A DNA stretch of 64,000 nucleotides. It comes from Escherichia phage V18. Position 1 is the first letter of the stretch. Each line of letters opens with the position of its first letter. The stretch lies in sequence record NC_041937.1. The stretch is one strand, 5' to 3'. The position numbers and the translations under genes are program-made. Positions 72-9,757 of the stretch are shown one piece after another. The notes under the pieces are model-generated. The model did not search any database and was not told where the DNA came from. It was given only the letters and a program-made list of their open reading frames with translations.

Positions 72-1007
72 TTATTTGGTGTTATTCTTTGTATCAATCA
101 GCTCACGGTATTCAATCATAGCAGGGGTGTCCCAATATTTCAAGCCTACATGCTTCAAAAGTGGATATTTCTTTTCCAATCTTGCAATATAGGCCTTCCC
201 GCATTTGACTCGGTTGGCGATTAAGATTTTGGCACGATGATTTAGCTCACTATGCTTCCACGCGGTGTTACCTTCCCACTTGTGGAAATGTGGCCGATAA
301 TTTCCAAAATCTTGCATGGGGATAATTTTCCCCAATTGTCTATACAGGCTGTCATATGAAGTTTCATTTGCTGCGCGAGTCAGTAAGAATTTCCAAGCAT
401 CCTCTTTCAACAAATGTTCCACACTCTTCTCTGTAACATACTGGCAATCAGGATCAGTCCAAAGCAGACGAGATTCTGATACCAGGTACAGATCTTCCCC
501 TTCAGGAATCTGAAGTGCCGCACGCACACGGTCATAATTTTGCTGGTAGATGTTACTCAGCTGTCCCAGCCAACAACTTCCACGTTGGATATCTCCCTCA
601 TAAGGAATGCAGTGCTTAATCTTCTTGAACTCTGCCTTAGTAATACGCTCACGACGGAAGTAACCATCCTTCTCAAGTTTTTTAACCCAATAGCCTGGCT
701 CATAATGAGTTTTTGTTTCACCTTTCTTCGCAGGTCGGCGAGGTAGCTCTGATAACAATTTGACCGTATCTGCAAAGAACGGATGGTGTGCCGCCTCTTT
801 AAACTCTTTCACCAGATCCGTGTTCCGGCAATAGAAAACGTTGCGTCCGGTGATCTCGCTTAAGTAGTTACACTTATTTCGGTTATATTTGCCGTCTCCG
901 TCGTTAAATACTAAATAGACTCCCCGTAAGAATTCTACCTTTCCGTAACAAGCGTAACCTATGCGGCCTTTATTTAAGCCGCCAGCGAAGATCTCACAGT
1001 CCCCCAA
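72..1007 (-). CDS. hypothetical protein; N-terminal acidic FNDGDG motif that may be Toprim-like; lies 5 nt downstream of the GHKL ATPase ORF in a different frame
   Basis: 311-aa ORF from track; motif MGDCEIFAGG...VFNDGDG loosely resembles Toprim E/DxDxG signatures; no HMM run. Confidence 0.45.
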   Translation of the reverse strand: MGDCEIFAGGLNKGRIGYACYGKVEFLRGVYLVFNDGDGKYNRNKCNYLSEITGRNVFYCRNTDLVKEFKEAAHHPFFADTVKLLSELPRRPAKKGETKTHYEPGYWVKKLEKDGYFRRERITKAEFKKIKHCIPYEGDIQRGSCWLGQLSNIYQQNYDRVRAALQIPEGEDLYLVSESRLLWTDPDCQYVTEKSVEHLLKEDAWKFLLTRAANETSYDSLYRQLGKIIPMQDFGNYRPHFHKWEGNTAWKHSELNHRAKILIANRVKCGKAYIARLEKKYPLLKHVGLKYWDTPAMIEYRELIDTKNNTK

Positions 1008-1012
1008 ATTTC

Positions 1013-2053
1013 CTAGACCTGTCTCTTCCCATCGTTCCCAATAAAATTCTTACCGAAGATGTGCCCGAACACTCCACTGTTCTTCATCATCTCGCGTGCT
1101 TCTGAGGATGTTTTTGCTGTTTCCAATTCCGCAACAACTTCTGCCCCACGAAGACGGATACCCTCTTTGACAAAAGCCTCCAGACGCTCTTGGAATCCAC
1201 CATCGTCGTGACCCTCTATGGTCCATTCGCGCCCAGGGTTAATATTGCAATCCCCGATAGGGATCTCTACACAGATTGCAGGGTAGTCTGTCAATGTTTC
1301 CAGAAACTTAGAGCGGTAAGGTTGGTGTCCCATCACCACACGGCTCTCATCAGAGCTGGTATAACCTTTCAGGATGGTCATTTTCCAACCATCTTTCTCG
1401 TAGTGATACTGCGCCTCAACCTTGTCACCTTCCAGCATCTTACTGGTCATAGGGTCGGTAACAGTAAACGGAAACTTTGCATAGCGTAGGCACGATGCAA
1501 TAGCAGTGCGATATTTCAGAACATGCTCTTTCTTAACATGGAACTGAACTTTTACCCCATTGTGCTCTTCAGTCTTCCGCTCGCGGATCTTGGTAACGTT
1601 TGGGATACCCTGATCCAAGAACAATAGATATGTGCTTTCAACACCATTGTGCACACTGATCACATCGAAAGTGTCCACCATGCTGAACGGAGCCTTTGAA
1701 CCAACACCTTTATTGCCAACCAGGGCGTTGCTGTTGCGTTTGGTTGACTCCCCGAGGTTCATGAAAGTGTTGCGGACCATCTCTTCTGACATGCCCAATC
1801 CAACGTCCTGCACAAAGAAGTACGGTTCAAGATCTGTAGGAGAGTGAATGATGATCGGCACATCACCCCGTCCAGACTCAACATGGGAGTCCACAGCATT
1901 AAAGATTGGTTCACGGCAGCTTGCCAGCACCTTATCTTCGTAAATCCCTTTAATGATTAGCCCAAAAGTCTCTTTGTTCAGAGAAATTGAGCCCCTGGTG
2001 ACCTCCATATTCCCGGTTAGTACCGCTTTAGTTTCATTACTGTTTACGATCAT
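1013..2053 (-). CDS. GHKL-superfamily ATPase (Bergerat-fold ATP-binding domain, GyrB/MutL/Hsp90-like)
   Basis: 346-aa ORF; N-box-like EPIFNAVDS, G1 box VQDVGLGMS, G2 box GNKGVGSKAPF in the expected order. Confidence 0.6.
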   Translation of the reverse strand: MIVNSNETKAVLTGNMEVTRGSISLNKETFGLIIKGIYEDKVLASCREPIFNAVDSHVESGRGDVPIIIHSPTDLEPYFFVQDVGLGMSEEMVRNTFMNLGESTKRNSNALVGNKGVGSKAPFSMVDTFDVISVHNGVESTYLLFLDQGIPNVTKIRERKTEEHNGVKVQFHVKKEHVLKYRTAIASCLRYAKFPFTVTDPMTSKMLEGDKVEAQYHYEKDGWKMTILKGYTSSDESRVVMGHQPYRSKFLETLTDYPAICVEIPIGDCNINPGREWTIEGHDDGGFQERLEAFVKEGIRLRGAEVVAELETAKTSSEAREMMKNSGVFGHIFGKNFIGNDGKRQV

Positions 2054-2550
2054 TTATTGCGCTCCTTGTAGTAGATATGGCTCCCGAATTGAGCTGTCCT
2101 CTGCATCTTTTTTGCCCATTTCGGTCGTACTTTGGTTGTATGGTAGTGTGTTGCTCCACCTGTTATATCCATAGCCATGTATGCAACATGGTTGTTATTA
2201 TAGACCTTTAGAAGCATCTTTGCAAGACTTTTAGCGTGATCCCATGAATCTTTTTCTGTCACCTTAAAAGTTTTGCTGTGGTTTGTCCACGAAAACTGGT
2301 TAGGTTGGTAGACAATCTTTCTTATAGTGTCTGGGTATTTGGGGTGAGATTTCCTGTTTAATGTGGCAAACCCAGATGCCAGCATACCCATCGTGCCATC
2401 CCCTCTGGCCTCCCTGTAGATATTGCATGCCAGAATGTTTTCCTTAGTATCCGATGGCTTGCAAGTATGATATACTTTTTGTTTTGGTGCTGCAACAACA
2501 GGCAGCGATAAAAATGCGCTCAAAATAATAGCAAAGATCTTAATTTTCAC
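2050..2550 (-). CDS. secreted cell-wall hydrolase, SleB/Hydrolase_2-like (candidate endolysin)
   Basis: 166-aa ORF; N-terminal signal-peptide-like MKIKIFAIILSAFLSLPVVAAP; motifs NIYREARGDG and YQPNQFSW typical of SleB-type hydrolases. Confidence 0.55.
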   Translation of the reverse strand: MKIKIFAIILSAFLSLPVVAAPKQKVYHTCKPSDTKENILACNIYREARGDGTMGMLASGFATLNRKSHPKYPDTIRKIVYQPNQFSWTNHSKTFKVTEKDSWDHAKSLAKMLLKVYNNNHVAYMAMDITGGATHYHTTKVRPKWAKKMQRTAQFGSHIYYKERNK

Positions 2551-2988: not shown

Positions 2989-4173
2989 TTAAGCTTTAGC
3001 TAAAATGGCGCTAAACTCTTCACCAAACTCTTTTACAATCTTCATCAGGTTTGGGTACGCTTTGATCAGTTGAGCAACGATCTTGTCACGCCCTTTACCG
3101 ATAAGCAAGGCATTTCCTAAGGCATTAGGTTTCATCATCGCCATAAAGACTGAGAATACAAAATCTCGGTTCTCGTCCTTGAAATTTTCCCAAAGGAAAT
3201 CGAGGAAGTTTGCCACACAGCTAACAAGATCTTCGTCAGAGATACTTGCATTTTCCATCATATTGCGAATAGCGATACACCCTTCAGATCCAAGAATCCA
3301 CAAAATGTCTGGCTGCTTAGGACCTACGTATTCTTTGCAACCCCCTGCCATAATCCGACCGATTTCCGGTAAGTTGCGTTTCTTGGTGTGGTAGGTCCAG
3401 ATCTCTACCGCTGCAGTGTGACCAATAGCCCCTTGCAGAAGAACACGGGCCATAGCGTCAGAAATAATACCGCTGTCAAAATCGTGCAAGATGTCAGATG
3501 CAGCAACCCAAGATCGCGGTGTGGCAAAAGATGGACAATTAATCTCAGCCATAGCCTCATAATTATCGATAGCTGATGGAACTCTTTTCAGATACCCAAT
3601 TACAGAGGAGTGCACCCCATTAAGGAATGCGTAGTCCTCAATAAACACCTCTGCATTGCTTGTAACTTCTACAATGATAAAGCGGTTAGCCAGAGGAGCT
3701 TCGAGCGCCGAGAGAACCGCACCATCTGTAGAACGGTTACCCGCAGCCACAAAAACAGAGCCTTTAGGGAATGCATAGGTGCCGCACTTGTGGTCGAGCA
3801 TAATCTGCATTGCAACCTTTTGCAGATAGTTATCTGCATGAGTAAGCTCATCCAGAAAGATAATCCCGCTCCAGTCCGGATCTGCAGGCCAAAATTCTGG
3901 AATTGCAAACACTGTACGTGTAGTTCCATCCGCTTCTACAGGGATAGGTAGCCCAGATAAGTCGGCAGGATCTTTATCCGACAGTCGCACGTCAACCAGG
4001 TTGTCATCTCGCTCACCGAACATATTATCGGCGATCTGCTTCATTACCTGGCTCTTCCCCACACCCATTGGTCCTAAAATCAGGACAGATCGGTTATGAC
4101 GCTGGGCAAACTGAATGATAGCTGGCAACTCACGGACAGTGATTTGACCACTTTCAAATACGTTTCTTGACAT
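2989..4173 (-). CDS. MoxR-like AAA+ ATPase (CobS/AAA_5-like)
   Basis: 394-aa ORF; Walker A LILGPMGVGKSQ, Walker B IIFLDELTHA, overall MoxR-like layout. Confidence 0.7.
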   Translation of the reverse strand: MSRNVFESGQITVRELPAIIQFAQRHNRSVLILGPMGVGKSQVMKQIADNMFGERDDNLVDVRLSDKDPADLSGLPIPVEADGTTRTVFAIPEFWPADPDWSGIIFLDELTHADNYLQKVAMQIMLDHKCGTYAFPKGSVFVAAGNRSTDGAVLSALEAPLANRFIIVEVTSNAEVFIEDYAFLNGVHSSVIGYLKRVPSAIDNYEAMAEINCPSFATPRSWVAASDILHDFDSGIISDAMARVLLQGAIGHTAAVEIWTYHTKKRNLPEIGRIMAGGCKEYVGPKQPDILWILGSEGCIAIRNMMENASISDEDLVSCVANFLDFLWENFKDENRDFVFSVFMAMMKPNALGNALLIGKGRDKIVAQLIKAYPNLMKIVKEFGEEFSAILAKA

Positions 4174-4355
4174 TAGTAAAAGTCCTCTACTTGTGTGTAA
4201 GTGTTTTCAAAGTTTTCCAAAACAGATGTCACATCGGATCTGTCAATATCGTACACAACTTCCCAGTTGTATGCAACCCTTTCTGCTGTCGCCTCTTCAG
4301 GACTTAGCCGCCTGCTGGGATGAAAGAATGCAATATCTGTGGGTAACTTTGTCAA
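4173..4355 (-). CDS. small hypothetical protein
   Basis: 60-aa ORF, start overlaps stop of upstream gene; codon usage similar to neighbours. Confidence 0.3.
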   Translation of the reverse strand: MTKLPTDIAFFHPSRRLSPEEATAERVAYNWEVVYDIDRSDVTSVLENFENTYTQVEDFY

Positions 4356-4440
4356 AATTTAACTCTTTTTCTGCACAAAGTTCGTGTTTCTGGTATAACA
4401 TGTTTATTACTCTTCTAAGCGGCATCCCTGCCCCCACCTG

Positions 4441-4821
4441 CTAGAATGCAGTTCGAATCCAGATAAGGTTCTTATCTGCCCAATCATAGAGGCAAGTCAT
4501 TGCGCTATTGAATTGCTCACACGGAGGATAATCTTCTTCCATCTGGCGCATAGCAGAGCCTTGCGGGTAAATATCCCGTGCTGCAAGCCACGCATCGTAG
4601 TCATCCACGGTATCGAAGTAGTATACAACATCCTCCAACTCAGGATCGAACTTTGAATTATCAGGATCCAGTTGTTCAGGGAACTTGGAGCGTAACTTGC
4701 CAGCCACAATGCTTGCCAACTCGCTAACATGCTTATTGTCCCACTCTACTAGTTTCCCGTCTTCAGCGATGCGTCCTAACCACTGATCATGAAGGTCAAC
4801 TGTTGTCTTCCACCGGGCCAT
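4441..4821 (-). CDS. hypothetical protein
   Basis: 126-aa ORF in co-directional gene string. Confidence 0.45.
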   Translation of the reverse strand: MARWKTTVDLHDQWLGRIAEDGKLVEWDNKHVSELASIVAGKLRSKFPEQLDPDNSKFDPELEDVVYYFDTVDDYDAWLAARDIYPQGSAMRQMEEDYPPCEQFNSAMTCLYDWADKNLIWIRTAF

Positions 4822-4823
4822 TA

Positions 4824-5081
4824 TCAGTCCACCTCTTCTTCTCGTTGCAGTTCAAGATACCCGTAGGTCTGGATATCTTCAAGGGTGTGGAAATCCCCAT
4901 CTGCCGCTAAGGCACGAACAACTTGGCACAAAACTTTATGAGGAACTTCATCCAGACCCAGATTCAGTGCAGGGAACACCTTATCTAAGTCAACAAAATA
5001 AACGAACTGTAGCTCACCAGCTTCAAAAGGTGTATCTTCAATAAACATCTTCTCGGCATTAGTCAAGATCTGCACTTTCAT
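4824..5081 (-). CDS. hypothetical protein
   Basis: 85-aa ORF tightly packed with neighbours. Confidence 0.4.
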   Translation of the reverse strand: MKVQILTNAEKMFIEDTPFEAGELQFVYFVDLDKVFPALNLGLDEVPHKVLCQVVRALAADGDFHTLEDIQTYGYLELQREEEVD

Positions 5082-5458
5082 TATTCTGCCTCCTCTTCTT
5101 TTTCTTCGGCGTTAGTTTCAGTGCTACCCCACTCTGGAGTTTCCACCTCGATAGTAAACTCACGCACTACACGGTAATTGCCCATGAGGCGCTCCACTTC
5201 GTCAAGGTTTATGGAGAGGCCATTGGCAACCAGGTCTGCAGCACCCTCTTCTACCAGGTAGTCCAGATTGGCTTCCAAAGCTTCAGGCTCAAACCCTGTC
5301 AATGCAATCAGATAACCTTTCCCTTCATCAGGGAGGACAATACAGCCCAACTGATTTTCTTTAAAAAGGCAGTGACCATCATTATTGATTGGGTGTTCAT
5401 TGCAGTAAATAGCTGCACGATAAGTAACTTTAGACATCGGTAAGGCCTCCTTAGGCAA
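5081..5458 (-). CDS. hypothetical acidic protein
   Basis: 125-aa ORF; ATGA-type overlap with next gene. Confidence 0.45.
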   Translation of the reverse strand: MPKEALPMSKVTYRAAIYCNEHPINNDGHCLFKENQLGCIVLPDEGKGYLIALTGFEPEALEANLDYLVEEGAADLVANGLSINLDEVERLMGNYRVVREFTIEVETPEWGSTETNAEEKEEEAE

Positions 5459-5729
5459 TTGTCATTTTACACTCTTGAAATTTTAACACAAGACGGTGAT
5501 TGTGTCTAGTGTCTAAAAAGATTTTTTCAACCATCAGGCACACGGTATAACCGTCCATCTTGTTAACAACAAAATCTCCAGGGTGAGGGAGGATGTCTCC
5601 CGGGTTGGGGAAACATAGTCCGCTCAAGAAGGCATCGTCGGTGGTAGACTTAATGGATTTCCACACGCTATCTGCCTGAACATTCTCACCCACATAGTAT
5701 ACGCTACCACATGTCTTCATCATAGTCAA
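5451..5729 (-). CDS. hypothetical protein
   Basis: 92-aa ORF (track start is TTG; an ATG two codons in is an alternative start). Confidence 0.4.
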   Translation of the reverse strand: MTMMKTCGSVYYVGENVQADSVWKSIKSTTDDAFLSGLCFPNPGDILPHPGDFVVNKMDGYTVCLMVEKIFLDTRHNHRLVLKFQECKMTIA

Positions 5730-5922
5730 ATCTCCGCGTAAATTAAACTGGAATCAGTATACTTCTTTAATGGGTAAATATCCTGTCCATAGATGCAGTC
5801 ATTAAACACCTCATCTACCCAAAGGCTACACTTATATCCCATCATTTCTAAAACACCCATCTCTTCTTCGGTAAACTTATCACCGCTCTTGCAAGATGTC
5901 AATACCTCATTCTGTACTCTTG

Positions 5923-6609
5923 CTACCTCGAAGCGGTATTGGCGATCAAATACTCCCCTAAAGGGTGTGCGGCATTAAAGATGCACAGTGGGCGGTTGAC
6001 GTAATAGTCTCCAGGTGTATAAAAATTATTGAGGTCTTTCACTAGAACATTCTTATCAGTCACTTCATTTATAACATCATGCATATCGCACATCTTTATA
6101 TGTTTGAGGATTCCATCCCCCATCACAAAATAAAAACTTGCTGAGGCACTTTCGGCATAGATCTTACTAGATCCGTTGTAGTTGTATTTTACTCGGATGC
6201 TAACGGGGGTTTTTCCTGTCGCGTTAGCCATCATCCAAAGAAATGGCAGCTCATACTTCTCCTCTGAGGAAACAAAAGGTGAAGTAGCCAGAGATCGAAA
6301 ACCTCCAGAGAAGTTGAAAGTTACAGAACCGCTCCGGCGGTATGATACCGCGTATTCTACTTTTATATCGACATACCCGTTGGAATAGGTGTGTCCTTCA
6401 TTATCTAAATATGTCCACTTATCAGACCCAGATACCAATCTACGTTCAATCACCTTCATCACTATAGGAATTAGTGGGTTGGTACAAACCGCTTTTGAAG
6501 TAGCTTTAGCATCTAGAGCCTCGTAAATTGCAGAAAGGATATCTCCAGCTGAGAGATTGGTTGTTATATCATGTTGCCACCTGGTGCTAAAACTGTTAAG
6601 ATTTGCCAT
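5923..6609 (-). CDS. hypothetical protein
   Basis: 228-aa ORF, first gene leftward of the divergent promoter region. Confidence 0.5.
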   Translation of the reverse strand: MANLNSFSTRWQHDITTNLSAGDILSAIYEALDAKATSKAVCTNPLIPIVMKVIERRLVSGSDKWTYLDNEGHTYSNGYVDIKVEYAVSYRRSGSVTFNFSGGFRSLATSPFVSSEEKYELPFLWMMANATGKTPVSIRVKYNYNGSSKIYAESASASFYFVMGDGILKHIKMCDMHDVINEVTDKNVLVKDLNNFYTPGDYYVNRPLCIFNAAHPLGEYLIANTASR

Positions 6610-6649
6610 GAGTAAGTGCTCCTATGTTAGTTTTCTTTCGAATGGGTGC

Positions 6650-6720
6650 ACTATATCTGGAATTTAGAGTAAAGTCAACACGTTTTTGATGTTGACATCT
6701 GTTGAGACAATTGATAAGAT
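6650..6720. promoter_or_regulatory. divergent back-to-back sigma70-like promoters sharing a palindromic -35 core
   Basis: Palindrome GTCAACA-n9-TGTTGAC (6674..6696). Plus strand: TTGACA 6692..6697, 17-bp spacer, TAAGAT 6715..6720. Minus strand: TTGACT (rc of 6674..6679), 17-bp spacer, TATAGT (rc of 6650..6655). Confidence 0.4.
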
Positions 6721-6751
6721 TTCTTCACTTACAGAGCACGAGAGACAACTC

Positions 6752-6844
6752 ATGAATCTTGAAAAATATTATACACCAGAAGAGTTAGAGCGCCTGCTCA
6801 AAAATATAGACGCAAACAGAATAATGCACGGAAACGAGATATAG
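6752..6844 (+). CDS. small ORF (30 aa) in leader of plus-strand block
   Basis: ATG..TAG ORF MNLEKYYTPEELERLLKNIDANRIMHGNEI downstream of predicted promoter; weak RBS; below ORF-track size cut-off. Confidence 0.25.
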   Translation: MNLEKYYTPEELERLLKNIDANRIMHGNEI

Positions 6845-6905
6845 AGTTCGACCTGTCGTGGGAAGAATACCTCCTATTTGGTAAAAAACTTTTAGGAGAA
6901 GGGGT

Positions 6906-7727
6906 ATGCGACTATACCTTATACCTTTCGACATGCACACAGATGAAAACGGGCTGGGAAATCCTTTCTACCCATCTCTGGAGCGGATAGATGATGAAGG
7001 TCCTTACGCAATTGATAATTGTTGTGTGGTAGGGTTGAGGTGCAACGCTCTGAAGGACTGTCTGGTAGATAAAAAGACCGCAATCCTGATTAAAGACAAA
7101 ACTGATCGAAAAATTGTCCAGCAGATGATGCTACATCTGAGCGAAGAGCGTATGGAGAAGTTGAAAGGTGATTATACTTTTGAAGATTTCATCTTGCAAT
7201 ACGGGACAGAAGAAGATAAACTAGCACTTTTTGACGAAGAGGAAGAAGATATGTCACCAATGCAGGACTTTAAAAATTTCATGGCTGATCGTGCAGCCAA
7301 CAAACACATTTCAGACATCGTAAACGAAACTGTGACAGAAGAAATTGAAGAACAGAACTCTGAAGAGGAAAAAGAGCCTCAGAAGGTCGAAGAGGAGATT
7401 GCAGAAGAGGTTCCTGCACTGCCTGATGATGTTGAGGTTGCTAAGGCTTACACTTTCTATTGTCAAACGTTCTACGATGCAGGTATGAAAGTTGATCTGT
7501 CGTTCAGCCAATTTAAGAGTACGTATATTCGCAAATGCTGTGCTTTAACTGGTGAACGTCTAGGAGCGGGACTTAAACCCCTGTTGGTGACCGACTGGAA
7601 TAAAGGTTTCACTAAAGGAAACTTTATGGTAGTATCTCCAATTATGGAGAAAGCTATGACAGATCTTATGAAAACCACCCGCATGACAATGACCGAGTTG
7701 GCAGGTATTTTCAAACACGTTAAATAA
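6906..7727 (+). CDS. hypothetical protein with central poly-acidic tract
   Basis: 273-aa ORF; strong RBS AGGAGAAGGGG upstream of ATG. Confidence 0.45.
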   Translation: MRLYLIPFDMHTDENGLGNPFYPSLERIDDEGPYAIDNCCVVGLRCNALKDCLVDKKTAILIKDKTDRKIVQQMMLHLSEERMEKLKGDYTFEDFILQYGTEEDKLALFDEEEEDMSPMQDFKNFMADRAANKHISDIVNETVTEEIEEQNSEEEKEPQKVEEEIAEEVPALPDDVEVAKAYTFYCQTFYDAGMKVDLSFSQFKSTYIRKCCALTGERLGAGLKPLLVTDWNKGFTKGNFMVVSPIMEKAMTDLMKTTRMTMTELAGIFKHVK

Positions 7728-7760
7728 TGACAGGGGCCATTGGCCCCTTCTGGAGTTTTA

Positions 7761-9221
7761 ATGGATAGCAGAAGTTCAGAAATCATTGCCTCACAGAAAG
7801 ATGATGCCCTGAGAATGTTGCAGGCTGCACGTATGTATCTCCTTGAAAAGCTGCCGTTTTATGGCACGCTACTGTCAGGGTTGCAGTTCGTAGAAAACCA
7901 CACATGGTGCTCTACCATGGCAACCGACCATAAACGCATCTATTACAGTCCTGAGTTCATTATGGGGTTGGCTGATGAACGCAAGGCTATTCTTAAGACC
8001 TCTCTAACTGGCGAGCAGTTTGAAATGGCTGAAGTTTTCTATTCACCCAAATCTGTGAAAGAGGTGGCCTTCCTTCTGTCACATGAGGTGGGGCATATTA
8101 TCTGTGATCACCTGGTCCGTGGTAAAAGCTTTGAGCCGGAACTGTTCAATATTGCTTGTGATCACGTTATCAACACAGGTCTTGTGGTTGACTTTAGCAA
8201 GCCTCCTTGTGTTTTCTTCCCGAAGGGGAAAAGCACTACGTTTGTGAAAGGTAAGCCTTTTGGCTTCTTAGCCAGCTGCTACTGCGACATGAAGTTTCAT
8301 GGATGGATTGCTGAGAACGTCTATGCAGTTCTTGATAAGCAAAGAGATCAGAATAACGGTAAAAGTAAGAGCGGTAAAGGTGAGAACTCTCAAGAGGATA
8401 AGCGACAAACCGATGATCACATGAGTGGGAACGGTGGCACCAGTGATGATCTTGGAAAGGCTATGGGATATAATCAGCCACAACCTGTAATCAGCCAATC
8501 TGATAAAGATCAGGCCATGCAGGACTCTGGTGACATGCTGGAGGCAGCAATGCAAGCTTCCGGAGGTCGTTGCCCTGAGGCGGTGCGTGAGTTTGTCAAG
8601 AACAGAGGTAAGCCTGTAATCAACTATATAGACATCATTAAGCAACGCATGTTGTCTAAACGAAAGGCTGAACTGACCTACAGAAAACCTGGTCGCCGAT
8701 CTGGGTCTTTGACCAGCACAATGCGAAAAGTTGGGGCTATAAACAAGAACCAGCACGTTATTGTTCCCGGTCGTAATCCGGAAAACACTATAGATATTGT
8801 GGTGGCTTTAGACGTTTCTGGCTCGATCTCTCAAAGAACTTTAAAGAAAATGTTCAATGAAATCACCGGATTGTGCAATCTGTATAAAGAGTTTAAGGTT
8901 ACAATGTTCTGTTGGTCAACTGAGGTTGGAGAGGTTAAAGTATACACTCGCGGTAACATAGATGAGATGATCAACTATGAGGTCCACTCAACATGGGGCA
9001 CAACAGCTGCTTGCGTGTTCGAGTATCTGGATGCCAACATACCGAATGCAAAAGATGTCATCGTCCTGACCGACCTATACTTTGAGCATAACTTTGAACA
9101 AAAGGCTGTTGACAACAAGTGGAAAAAGTACGATACTTTATGGGTTCTCACCGAGGGGTATAATAAAAATTATATCCCGAGCTTTGGGAAAACTGTAGAA
9201 TTAATCGAGTACGCCAAGTAA
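7761..9221 (+). CDS. vWA-domain protein with N-terminal putative zinc-metallopeptidase domain (DUF2201-like)
   Basis: HEVGHIICDH (HExxH) and MIDAS-like VVALDVSGSIS; start moved to ATG 7761 with GGAG RBS (track start 7740 lies inside a hairpin). Confidence 0.65.
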   Translation: MDSRSSEIIASQKDDALRMLQAARMYLLEKLPFYGTLLSGLQFVENHTWCSTMATDHKRIYYSPEFIMGLADERKAILKTSLTGEQFEMAEVFYSPKSVKEVAFLLSHEVGHIICDHLVRGKSFEPELFNIACDHVINTGLVVDFSKPPCVFFPKGKSTTFVKGKPFGFLASCYCDMKFHGWIAENVYAVLDKQRDQNNGKSKSGKGENSQEDKRQTDDHMSGNGGTSDDLGKAMGYNQPQPVISQSDKDQAMQDSGDMLEAAMQASGGRCPEAVREFVKNRGKPVINYIDIIKQRMLSKRKAELTYRKPGRRSGSLTSTMRKVGAINKNQHVIVPGRNPENTIDIVVALDVSGSISQRTLKKMFNEITGLCNLYKEFKVTMFCWSTEVGEVKVYTRGNIDEMINYEVHSTWGTTAACVFEYLDANIPNAKDVIVLTDLYFEHNFEQKAVDNKWKKYDTLWVLTEGYNKNYIPSFGKTVELIEYAK

Positions 9222-9494: not shown

Positions 9495-9757
9495 TGACCA
9501 CGAAAATCACTATTGCAGAACCGAAAGCTAACACTCAACCCATCGAAAAATTTAAATGCGGTGAGGTGGTAACATTTACACCAGATAATGAAGATGCTAA
9601 GATTTTCGCCATGGTCACAGCTGAGTGGATGTGCGACAACACCACACAGGTTCTGCGTTTTGACACCTACCTTACAGATGAAATCAGGAACGATAAGATC
9701 GTGACTGGTGTAGATACTGAAATTATTTTCTACAAGAGCTTTTTAGAGGGTTTCTAA
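9494..9757 (+). CDS. small hypothetical protein (member of tandem trio)
   Basis: 87-aa ORF. Confidence 0.4.
   Translation: MTTKITIAEPKANTQPIEKFKCGEVVTFTPDNEDAKIFAMVTAEWMCDNTTQVLRFDTYLTDEIRNDKIVTGVDTEIIFYKSFLEGF

Follow-up and report, generated by a model that had tools for sequence, protein, structure and literature searches.

The subject of this analysis is a pair of genes in a stretch of 64,000 nucleotides from Escherichia phage V18 (sequence record NC_041937.1; the whole stretch is called the window below). One gene encodes a MoxR-class AAA+ ATPase (2989..4173, minus strand) and the other a partner protein that combines an N-terminal HExxH domain with a C-terminal vWA domain (7761..9221, plus strand). 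We find that the two genes are a known, uncharacterised two-gene module of phages and bacteria, present here in a divergent gene order that is specific to one phage lineage; they are not a new system. The genes lie on the same strand in all of the 150 or more loci of other than rV5 type that we examined, and are adjacent in about 90% of these. On balance, we consider it probable that the separated genes are the halves of one conserved system of the phage N4 gp24/gp25 type, an ATP-driven remodelling and peptidase pair that would act in the early or middle phase of infection and would not form part of the virion.

Over 7 kb, the region shares 96-97% identity with about 120 rV5-like myoviruses of Escherichia (genus Vequintavirus), including slur16, nom and rV5_ev147, whose coordinates run nearly in register with those of the window. 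Both open reading frames (ORFs) were verified as full length: they encode 394 and 486 amino acids, for ATPase and partner respectively, with boundaries identical to those annotated in relatives and equal lengths, and the proteins are 99.0-99.7% identical to those of phage nom. These results bear out an earlier reading of the window made from its letters (hereafter the sequence-only reading), which had described the two genes as divergently transcribed and about 3.5 kb apart. Indeed, the two start codons face away from each other at a distance of 3,587 nt, and the strand switch occurs in a 76-bp gap (6610..6685) between gene starts at 6609 on the minus strand and 6686 on the plus strand, where the sign of the GC skew also flips. 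The genome paper of rV5 reports bidirectional promoters at the equivalent site, between rV5 genes 10 and 11.

The ATPase and its partner protein

The features of the ATPase are listed below.

2989..4173, minus strand: MoxR-class AAA+ ATPase, 394 amino acids, phage N4 gp24 family (phrog_1297 at 1.4e-110)
4051..4074, minus strand: Walker A motif GPMGVGKS, residues 34-41, with G37, G39, K40 and S41 invariant in the homologue alignment
3904..3951, minus strand: predicted helix-2 insert beta-hairpin, residues 75-90, LPIPVEADGTTRTVFA, from the predicted structure and conserved flanks
3844..3858, minus strand: Walker B motif FLDEL (D108, E109), from alignment and translation
3508..3738, minus strand: sensor-1 N146/R147, arginine R164 of PLANRF and sensor-2 R220 of ATPRSW, invariant in homologues

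Assignment of this protein to the MoxR/AAA_5 class is supported by transitive homology, a profile match to Midasin, a NorQ/CbbQ-like fold and the helix-2 hairpin. AAA_3 and AAA_5 are present in homologues found at E values of about 1e-45, which are 35% identical over 85% of the length, the transitive links as a whole ranging from 1e-34 to 1e-45, and several relatives score above the Pfam cut-off (AAA_5 at 25.0 in S-TIM5, 31.8 in bacterial locus L165 and 33.9 in bacterial locus L098, the last with AAA_3 at 27.2 in addition). When a profile of the family was compared with PDB sequences, the top match was Midasin (5.6e-10), and a Foldseek search with an AlphaFold2 model of the ATPase (predicted local distance difference test score, pLDDT, 84.7) returned NorQ and CbbQ2 as the top 12 matches (E 2e-8; target-normalised template-modelling (TM) score 0.63). 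These lines of evidence uphold the MoxR identity given in the sequence-only reading. The domain search that it had proposed as a check placed the partner, through DUF2201_N and DUF2201, but left the ATPase below threshold, so that the latter was placed by homology, profile and fold instead.

A beta-hairpin inserted in helix 2 is the defining feature of the MoxR clade (PMC7159879, PMC13036017), and in NorQ it is the element that contacts the vWA protein (PMC13036017). In the model of the window ATPase, strands are predicted at residues 75-81 and 84-90, directly after a helix at 69-73 and ahead of the Walker B strand, and this segment is flanked by invariant residues (D71, G74, A90, P92, P96, D98 and P99). 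The full AAA+ catalytic set of Walker A, Walker B, sensor 1, arginine finger and sensor 2 is invariant across 22 homologues. Elsewhere, the model predicts only two-residue bridges at about 129-134, before the strand at 138-145 (the pre-sensor-1 region), and four short helices (174-210) ahead of sensor 2. The protein also carries an extra C-terminal helical domain of about 120 amino acids that has no counterpart in NorQ or CbbQ. Its start codon (ATG, 4173) is preceded by GAGGA 8 nt upstream.

The corresponding features of the partner are as follows.

7761..9221, plus strand: partner protein, 486 amino acids, N4 gp25 family, with a zincin-like HExxH domain, a disordered linker, a helical region and a vWA domain with an adhesion site dependent on a metal ion (MIDAS)
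8082..8111, plus strand: HEVGHIICDH, putative zinc site with the HExxH residues H108, E109 and H112, plus H117, from conservation
8148..8174, plus strand: NIACDHVIN with D134, a candidate further zinc ligand, from conservation
8358..8447, plus strand: charged and glycine-rich low-complexity linker, residues 200-229, pLDDT below 50, between the peptidase and vWA halves
8811..9074, plus strand: MIDAS residues DVSGS (351-355), G413-T414 and T437-D438, invariant in two partner alignments

Both Pfam domains of the partner exceed their gathering cut-offs, DUF2201_N ('putative metallopeptidase') at 1.2e-28 and 100.9 bits against 23.2, followed towards the C-terminus by DUF2201 ('VWA-like') at 2.6e-11 and 44.2 bits against 26.4. 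Together with the conserved motifs, this agrees with the earlier description of a vWA protein with an N-terminal HExxH domain. The HExxH motif is intact (HEVGH, residues 108-112). In alignments of 17-18 homologues, with identities down to 25%, residues H108, H112, N130, A132, D134 and N138 are invariant, E109 and H117 reach a conservation of at least 90%, and the downstream N-x-A-x-D-x-x-x-N helix is invariant or nearly so; the pattern suggests that the histidines and D134 would act as zinc ligands. A sequence search against solved structures found no relative of this N-terminal domain. The linker differs in length among homologues, and the vWA fold that follows has a complete MIDAS (DxSxS, GT, TD). 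An alternative start at TTG 7740 would give 493 amino acids; ATG 7761 is the likely start, since it has GGAG 5 nt upstream and is the start annotated in relatives, while the TTG lies inside a GC hairpin. The family is large, with 26,217 representatives at E <= 1e-3.

Many RefSeq phage records call the partner an 'HNH endonuclease', a label carried by its PHROGs family (phrog_1314) and also by that of the neighbouring Srd-like gene (phrog_3118). Pfam finds DUF2201_N and DUF2201 in the partner and no HNH domain, and the label appears to be a propagated mis-annotation.

Gene order and relatives in phages and bacteria

The closest described counterpart of the pair is that of N4-like phages. In the full phage database, PhAPEC7 gp24, annotated as N4 gp24-like, matches the ATPase at 24% identity (E 3e-15), and PhAPEC7 gp25, annotated as N4 gp25-like, matches the partner at 21% identity (BLASTP E 9e-18) and has the same DUF2201_N and DUF2201 domains. 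Judged by this similarity, the window genes are a pair of the N4 gp24/gp25 type, the link to N4 running through the PhAPEC7 proteins rather than through a direct comparison. In N4 itself, gp24 ('unknown') and gp25 ('vWFA domain') are middle transcripts, and both belong to the core set of 14 genes that N4-like phages share (PMC4193335, PMC2784036). The N4 pair (Schitoviridae) and the window pair are alike in their location close to rIIA/rIIB, in a region of non-late genes. However, the N4-like genes are adjacent and co-directional and are followed by dCTP deaminase and ThyX, whereas those of the window are 3.6 kb apart and divergent, and the rV5-type proteins are longer (394 versus about 350 amino acids; 486 versus about 390) and have clade-specific insertions.

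A MoxR AAA+ and metallopeptidase-vWA chaperone-cochaperone pair of the same architecture and family was described by Iyer et al. (2021; PMC7824862) in group 2.2 jumbo phages, and 121Q, K64-1, CBB and Atu_ph07 are matched by both of our queries. That pair is adjacent, was described only in jumbo phages and was assigned a proposed role in virion assembly; the context of the pair in the window and in N4-like phages points instead to early or middle expression. The sequence-only reading had compared the genes with CobS/CobT-like pairs of large phages. These likewise consist of an AAA_5-type ATPase and a vWA partner, with a similarly unclear role in phages, but CobT has no HExxH domain and belongs to a different family. 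We rejected this comparison because neither CobS nor CobT gave a Pfam match at E <= 0.1, and phage 'cobalamin biosynthesis' proteins are weak structural matches to the partner at the level of the vWA domain (phage CobT-like proteins, E about 1e-7, TM about 0.2); the right reference is the N4 gp24/gp25 and jumbo-phage pair.

Loci around ATPase homologues were fetched and partner homologues located in them by tblastn, the viral set comprising IMG/VR contigs and a first group of metagenome and genome contigs. Every viral locus of other than rV5 type with enough downstream sequence has the partner after the ATPase on the same strand, with a gap of about 95-390 nt in 71 loci and of 538 nt in one, so that adjacency and co-direction hold for 71 of the 72 informative viral loci. 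Annotated phages with the adjacent order include the N4-like PhAPEC7 and KP8, jumbo phage 121Q, cyanophage S-TIM5, Atu_ph07 and UPEC06, and the two families have parallel host distributions among cultured phages (811 records for the ATPase, 671 for the partner). Cellular loci behave similarly: where both genes were present they were on the same strand in 75 of 75 cases and adjacent in the order ATPase then partner in 65, the other ten having the genes 1.3-6.6 kb apart or in reversed order. The general statement that MoxR ATPases are encoded beside a vWA partner therefore holds strongly for this family.

The split layout on opposite strands was found only in the window, nom, rV5_ev147, a near-twin from IMG/VR (L006), a contig with 53% identity (L007) and the Seunavirus SalP219. 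SalP219 (48% ATPase identity) keeps the whole arrangement, including a Srd-like gene just upstream of the partner. UPEC06, filed in the same subfamily, and L008, which resembles W70 (Septuagintavirus), have the two genes side by side on one arm of a similar divergent junction, and the Certrevirus-type relatives in or near the subfamily also retain the adjacent order on one arm. Since UPEC06 and L008 have the adjacent pair and only rV5- and Seunavirus-type phages have it split, the split is derived, an old rearrangement across the junction that is specific to the Vequintavirus/Seunavirus-type clade. The synteny comparison suggested by the sequence-only reading thus confined the divergent order to this clade, with a common strand elsewhere.

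The bacterial copies of the pair include those of an Aliarcobacter (L098, OY781917.1) and a member of the Arenicellales (L165, CP179198.1), with about 70 more among L094-L172. Carriers are mainly Campylobacterota and sulfur-oxidising Proteobacteria; Lachnospiraceae have the reversed order. The flanks of L098 and L165, the two loci inspected, hold tRNA-synthetase-like, pseudouridine synthase, GreA and phosphoribulokinase genes and show no obvious prophage context. A divergent bacterial copy (L005; GCA_045600625.1, JAZRYF010000023.1, 1496..16807) consists of a 378-amino-acid ATPase-like gene and a DUF2201 protein (P0145), with a large SNF2/ResIII helicase on one side and M50-like peptidase, leucine-rich repeat, metallophosphatase, Ser/Thr kinase, PP2C phosphatase, vWA and JAB-like genes on the other, a context that looks like a conflict or signalling island.

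A further recurrent neighbour is thymidylate synthase, encoded 1.1-2.9 kb downstream of the pair in 29 of 46 informative loci, which are not phylogenetically independent. The enzyme is ThyA in 121Q and in the group typified by L002, while N4-like and S-TIM5-like phages have the non-homologous ThyX; in N4-like phages a dCTP deaminase lies immediately downstream of the pair. Examples are found at 9578..10462 in L002, 7182..7688 and 9161..10105 in L086, 9015..9944 in L090 and 9667..10338 in L091. Phages of the rV5, Seunavirus, UPEC06 and Atu_ph07 types lack the linkage, as do the bacterial loci that were inspected.

A proposed function and its alternatives

Several features of the locus point to an intracellular action of the pair in the early or middle phase. 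The genes are located at the early divergent junction, with Srd-like, rIIA and SleB-like genes as neighbours and late genes 27-66 a long way off, and neither protein is among those named in mass spectrometry of the rV5 virion. Additionally, the homologue W70_33 is absent from the virion proteome of W70 (28 proteins), which contains a separate maturation protease.

By analogy with NorQ-NorD, CbbQ-CbbO, RavA-ViaA and Rea1, we infer a mechanism in which the ATPase would presumably form a hexameric ring of the MoxR class and the partner would serve as adaptor and effector, its C-terminal vWA domain with MIDAS joined by a disordered, charged linker to the N-terminal zincin-like HExxH peptidase. In the NorQ-NorD system, one NorD attaches by its vWA domain to the helix-2-insert face of the NorQ hexamer, the target is bound by the MIDAS, and the linker, which is disordered in NorD, becomes twisted as ATP is hydrolysed (PMC9976466, PMC13036017); Kaur et al. 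extend such a mechanism to MoxR-vWA systems generally (PMC7159879). In the phage pair, the vWA domain might likewise dock on the helix-2-insert face of the ring and the MIDAS metal capture an acidic residue of the target protein, whereupon ATP hydrolysis could remodel the linker or the target, so that the target is presented to the peptidase domain or the peptidase is switched on. The ancestral order would have been ATPase then partner in one operon, and in the ancestor of the Vequintavirus- and Seunavirus-type phages a rearrangement would have carried the ATPase to the leftward arm, with the partner staying on the rightward one. As both arms share one bidirectional early promoter region, co-expression would probably have been preserved without adjacency. 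It is on this footing that we infer physical interaction, hexamer formation, proteolysis, timing in rV5 and co-regulation of the pair.

The likeness to known systems has clear bounds. NorQ-NorD and CbbQ-CbbO are also MoxR AAA+ proteins with vWA partners, with roles in metal insertion into nitric oxide reductase and in Rubisco activation, respectively. NorQ has the helix-2 insert, which is also predicted in the window ATPase, but the ATPase is just 16-21% identical to NorQ and CbbQ; the window partner shares the NorD plan of N-terminal domain, disordered linker and C-terminal vWA domain with a DxSxS-T-D MIDAS, whereas NorD and CbbO have no HExxH zincin domain. Nor is a cognate target enzyme encoded near the window genes, in contrast to those systems. 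In the MoxR-vWA ternary conflict systems of Kaur et al. (2020; PMC7159879), which contain VMAP, iSTAND, FtsH or beta-propeller components, a MoxR and vWA core is also proposed to gate an effector; the window pair differs from them in having no third component and in having its effector fused to the vWA protein. A conflict or defence system was rejected as an explanation of the pair: it has no PADLOC membership (P-loop matches being sub-significant), bpMoxR is below its cut-off, and no VMAP, iSTAND, FtsH or beta-propeller gene is a neighbour.

A number of observations weigh against an N4-type remodelling and peptidase system. The window ATPase is itself below every Pfam gathering threshold (AAA_5 16.7 bits against 22; bpMoxR 15.4 against 27; AAA_3 unmatched), and plain Pfam, NCBIfam and PDB-sequence searches with it gave only sub-threshold matches at the level of the P-loop (ClpB/ClpC, AAA_14). 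A homologue of the partner, P0146, has HAxxH in place of HExxH, so peptidase chemistry is not universal in the family, and no NorD-like 'finger' was recognised in the vWA model. Some genes close to the pair in 121Q and S-TIM5 carry annotations as virion proteins. A consensus scan for sigma-70 promoters and terminators found 15 promoter-like sites in the region against 12.4 expected from shuffles, which is no enrichment, and the promoter assignments therefore draw solely on the rV5 paper and the geometry of the sites. The division into two transcription units could equally permit independent regulation or functions. Finally, our literature search on DUF2201, on MoxR in rV5 and the Vequintavirinae, and on the function of N4 gp24/gp25 found no experimental study of any family member.

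That the pair is instead a chaperone-protease of virion morphogenesis, assisting the assembly and proteolytic processing of structural proteins such as those of the tail, seems unlikely to us, although Iyer et al. (2021; PMC7824862) proposed a role in virion assembly for the same architecture. A further precedent is Acidianus two-tailed virus, an archaeal virus for whose MoxR-type ATPase and vWA partner a role in morphogenesis has been shown; according to Scheele et al. (2011), as cited in PMC7159879 and PMC7824862, the system acts in extracellular tail development and has no peptidase domain, and the likeness is one of description. The structural annotations near the pair in 121Q and S-TIM5, where Hsp20 or Hsp70-like genes also lie close by, would fit this role too, and since an assembly chaperone is not expected in mature virions, absence from the proteomes is not decisive. 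Nevertheless, the evidence on timing and place weakens this explanation. The rV5-type genes belong to the early junction and are distant from the late genes; the N4 genes are middle transcripts that adjoin dCTP deaminase, ThyX and rIIA/B; the pair is repeatedly linked to ThyA or ThyX and to replication genes; the same pair is found amid housekeeping genes in bacterial chromosomes with no virion to assemble; and a dedicated capsid maturation protease exists separately in W70. It is quite improbable, in our judgement, that the pair is a metallo-chaperone or activase in the manner of NorQD, CbbQO, CoxDE and the chelatases, using ATP to insert or exchange a metal in, or to reactivate, an enzyme of nucleotide metabolism, with HExxH as a site of metal binding or delivery. 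The closest solved folds are indeed NorQ and CbbQ, the order of N-domain, disordered linker and vWA-MIDAS mirrors NorD, and the position upstream of ThyA or ThyX (29 of 46 loci), or of dCTP deaminase in N4-like phages, would suit such a role. However, the HExxH glutamate is the base used for catalysis in zincins, and its high conservation is easier to reconcile with hydrolysis than with delivery of a metal; ThyA requires no metal; and the linkage, besides being absent from rV5-, Seunavirus-, UPEC06- and Atu_ph07-type phages and the inspected bacteria, may only reflect placement in a module of middle genes, across loci that are not independent.

The split itself raises the question of whether the two genes became uncoupled in rV5-type phages, each being recruited to a separate task or one heading for loss. 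They do lie in different transcription units, the partner has gained a conserved new upstream neighbour in the Srd-like gene, and both proteins of the rV5 clade have lineage-specific insertions. We nonetheless regard uncoupling as very improbable. The ratio of non-synonymous to synonymous substitution rates (dN/dS) is 0.006 for the ATPase (compared with phage nom) and 0.031-0.039 for the partner (compared with three relatives), values among the lowest of the 12 genes tested at the locus, and both genes are under strong purifying selection. All catalytic and helix-2-insert residues are invariant. Moreover, each of the examined genomes of rV5, Seunavirus or L007 type has both genes, and no lineage with one gene and not the other was seen among the loci examined where sequence was available. 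Low dN/dS and intact motifs argue against decay or uncoupling, although interaction is not thereby proven.

If the pair is an N4-type remodelling and peptidase system, then it may, as we suggest only tentatively, represent a distinct class of two-component AAA+ protease, in which a MoxR ring and a zincin adaptor targeted by its MIDAS form a self-contained unit that cleaves or remodels one specific host or phage protein, its targets being encoded elsewhere. Under this proposal, the pair may be deployed in the phase of replication and nucleotide metabolism, often near ThyA or ThyX, by five or more phage groups that are unrelated to each other (N4-like, rV5/Seunavirus-like, jumbo, cyanophage and L002-type), and Campylobacterota and sulfur oxidisers may keep it among housekeeping genes. 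If this were true, the rV5-type split would show that the subunits need co-expression but not co-translation from one mRNA.

The divergent junction, its neighbours and the significance of the split

The remaining features of the locus lie between the two genes.

6610..6685, no strand: divergent intergenic junction, 76 bp, with candidate outward-facing sigma-70-like sites by consensus match
6678..6650, minus strand: sigma-70-like site TTGACT-17-TATAGT, a consensus match alone
6692..6720 or 6574..6602, plus strand: sigma-70-like sites TTGACA-17-TAAGAT or TTGCCA-17-TAAGAT, respectively, consensus matches alone
6686..7727, plus strand: Srd-like 'anti-sigma' gene (rV5 gp11), next to the partner on its upstream side, a position conserved in the split clade
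4173..4355, minus strand: small ORF with a stop codon that overlaps the start of the ATPase gene (TAATG), 97 amino acids in relatives
7732..7748, no strand: GC-rich hairpin, a perfect palindrome, AGGGGCCATTGGCCCCT, after the stop of the Srd-like gene (7727) and before the ATG of the partner (7761)

At 6674..6696 there is an inverted repeat, GTCAACAcgtttttgaTGTTGAC, made up of the two -35-like hexamers that face outward, TTGACT (minus strand) and TTGACA (plus strand). Because the promoter-like site on the plus strand falls within the 5' end annotated for the Srd-like ORF, the real start of that gene may be the in-frame ATG at 6752. In the related phage Murica, a terminator is annotated at the position of the hairpin at 7732..7748, which could be a terminator, an attenuator or an RNA-processing site that sets the level of partner expression. 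On the ATPase arm, the rIIA-like protein (1013..2053 and 72..1007) has a HATPase_c_3 (GHKL ATPase) domain and is encoded next to a SleB-type cell-wall hydrolase (2050..2550). Vequintavirus and Seunavirus retain both genes on the ATPase arm, downstream of the ATPase; the SleB-type hydrolase of L008 is on the arm opposite the pair. The first gene on the arm in UPEC06 (L088), two genes upstream of the ATPase, is annotated as a 'GTP pyrophosphokinase' (5816..6379), a RelA/SpoT-like alarmone synthetase.

Compared with rV5_ev147 and the 12 closest relatives, the window has many isolated deletions of 1-2 nt, together with deletions of 16 and 41 nt (sites at 1041, 4331, 5937, 6800, 6918, 11689, 11758, 15120, 23168, 25997, 31440, 42045, 43560 and others). 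A private 41-nt deletion at 4331 shortens the small ORF upstream of the ATPase, and two 1-nt deletions split the Srd-like gp11 into 6686..6844 and 6906..7727; also broken are rIIA (72..1007 / 1013..2053), gene 10 ('fucosyltransferase-like'), the polynucleotide-kinase region, and tail and structural genes. Local decay of the region between ATPase and partner was rejected as an explanation, since a 50-kb comparison shows frameshifting deletions throughout the window, structural genes included. The scattered deletions look like sequence or assembly errors or private mutations and not like biology of the locus. Additionally, 16 GenBank records named 'Campylobacter phage' (host Campylobacter jejuni; MG065646, MG065647, MG065658 and others) are about 96% identical to rV5-like phages of E. 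coli over this region, and their host assignment looks doubtful.

GenBank records of rV5-like phages already bear the labels 'MoxR ATPase' and 'metallopeptidase', and our search of the literature on rV5 and the family found no paper linking the two separated rV5 genes. Recognising them as the same pair corrects the name 'HNH endonuclease' given to the partner and, for the ATPase, the isolated entries 'ATPase' or 'hypothetical protein', all of which mislead. N4-like phages share just 14 core genes, and the pair is part of that set; it is found in hundreds of phages in culture and in protein clusters that number thousands (6,723 partner-family representatives at E <= 1e-30). The split pair shows that adjacency of the two genes is dispensable, and since rV5-type phages are genetically tractable phages of E. 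coli, they offer a setting in which the expression of each subunit could be manipulated separately.

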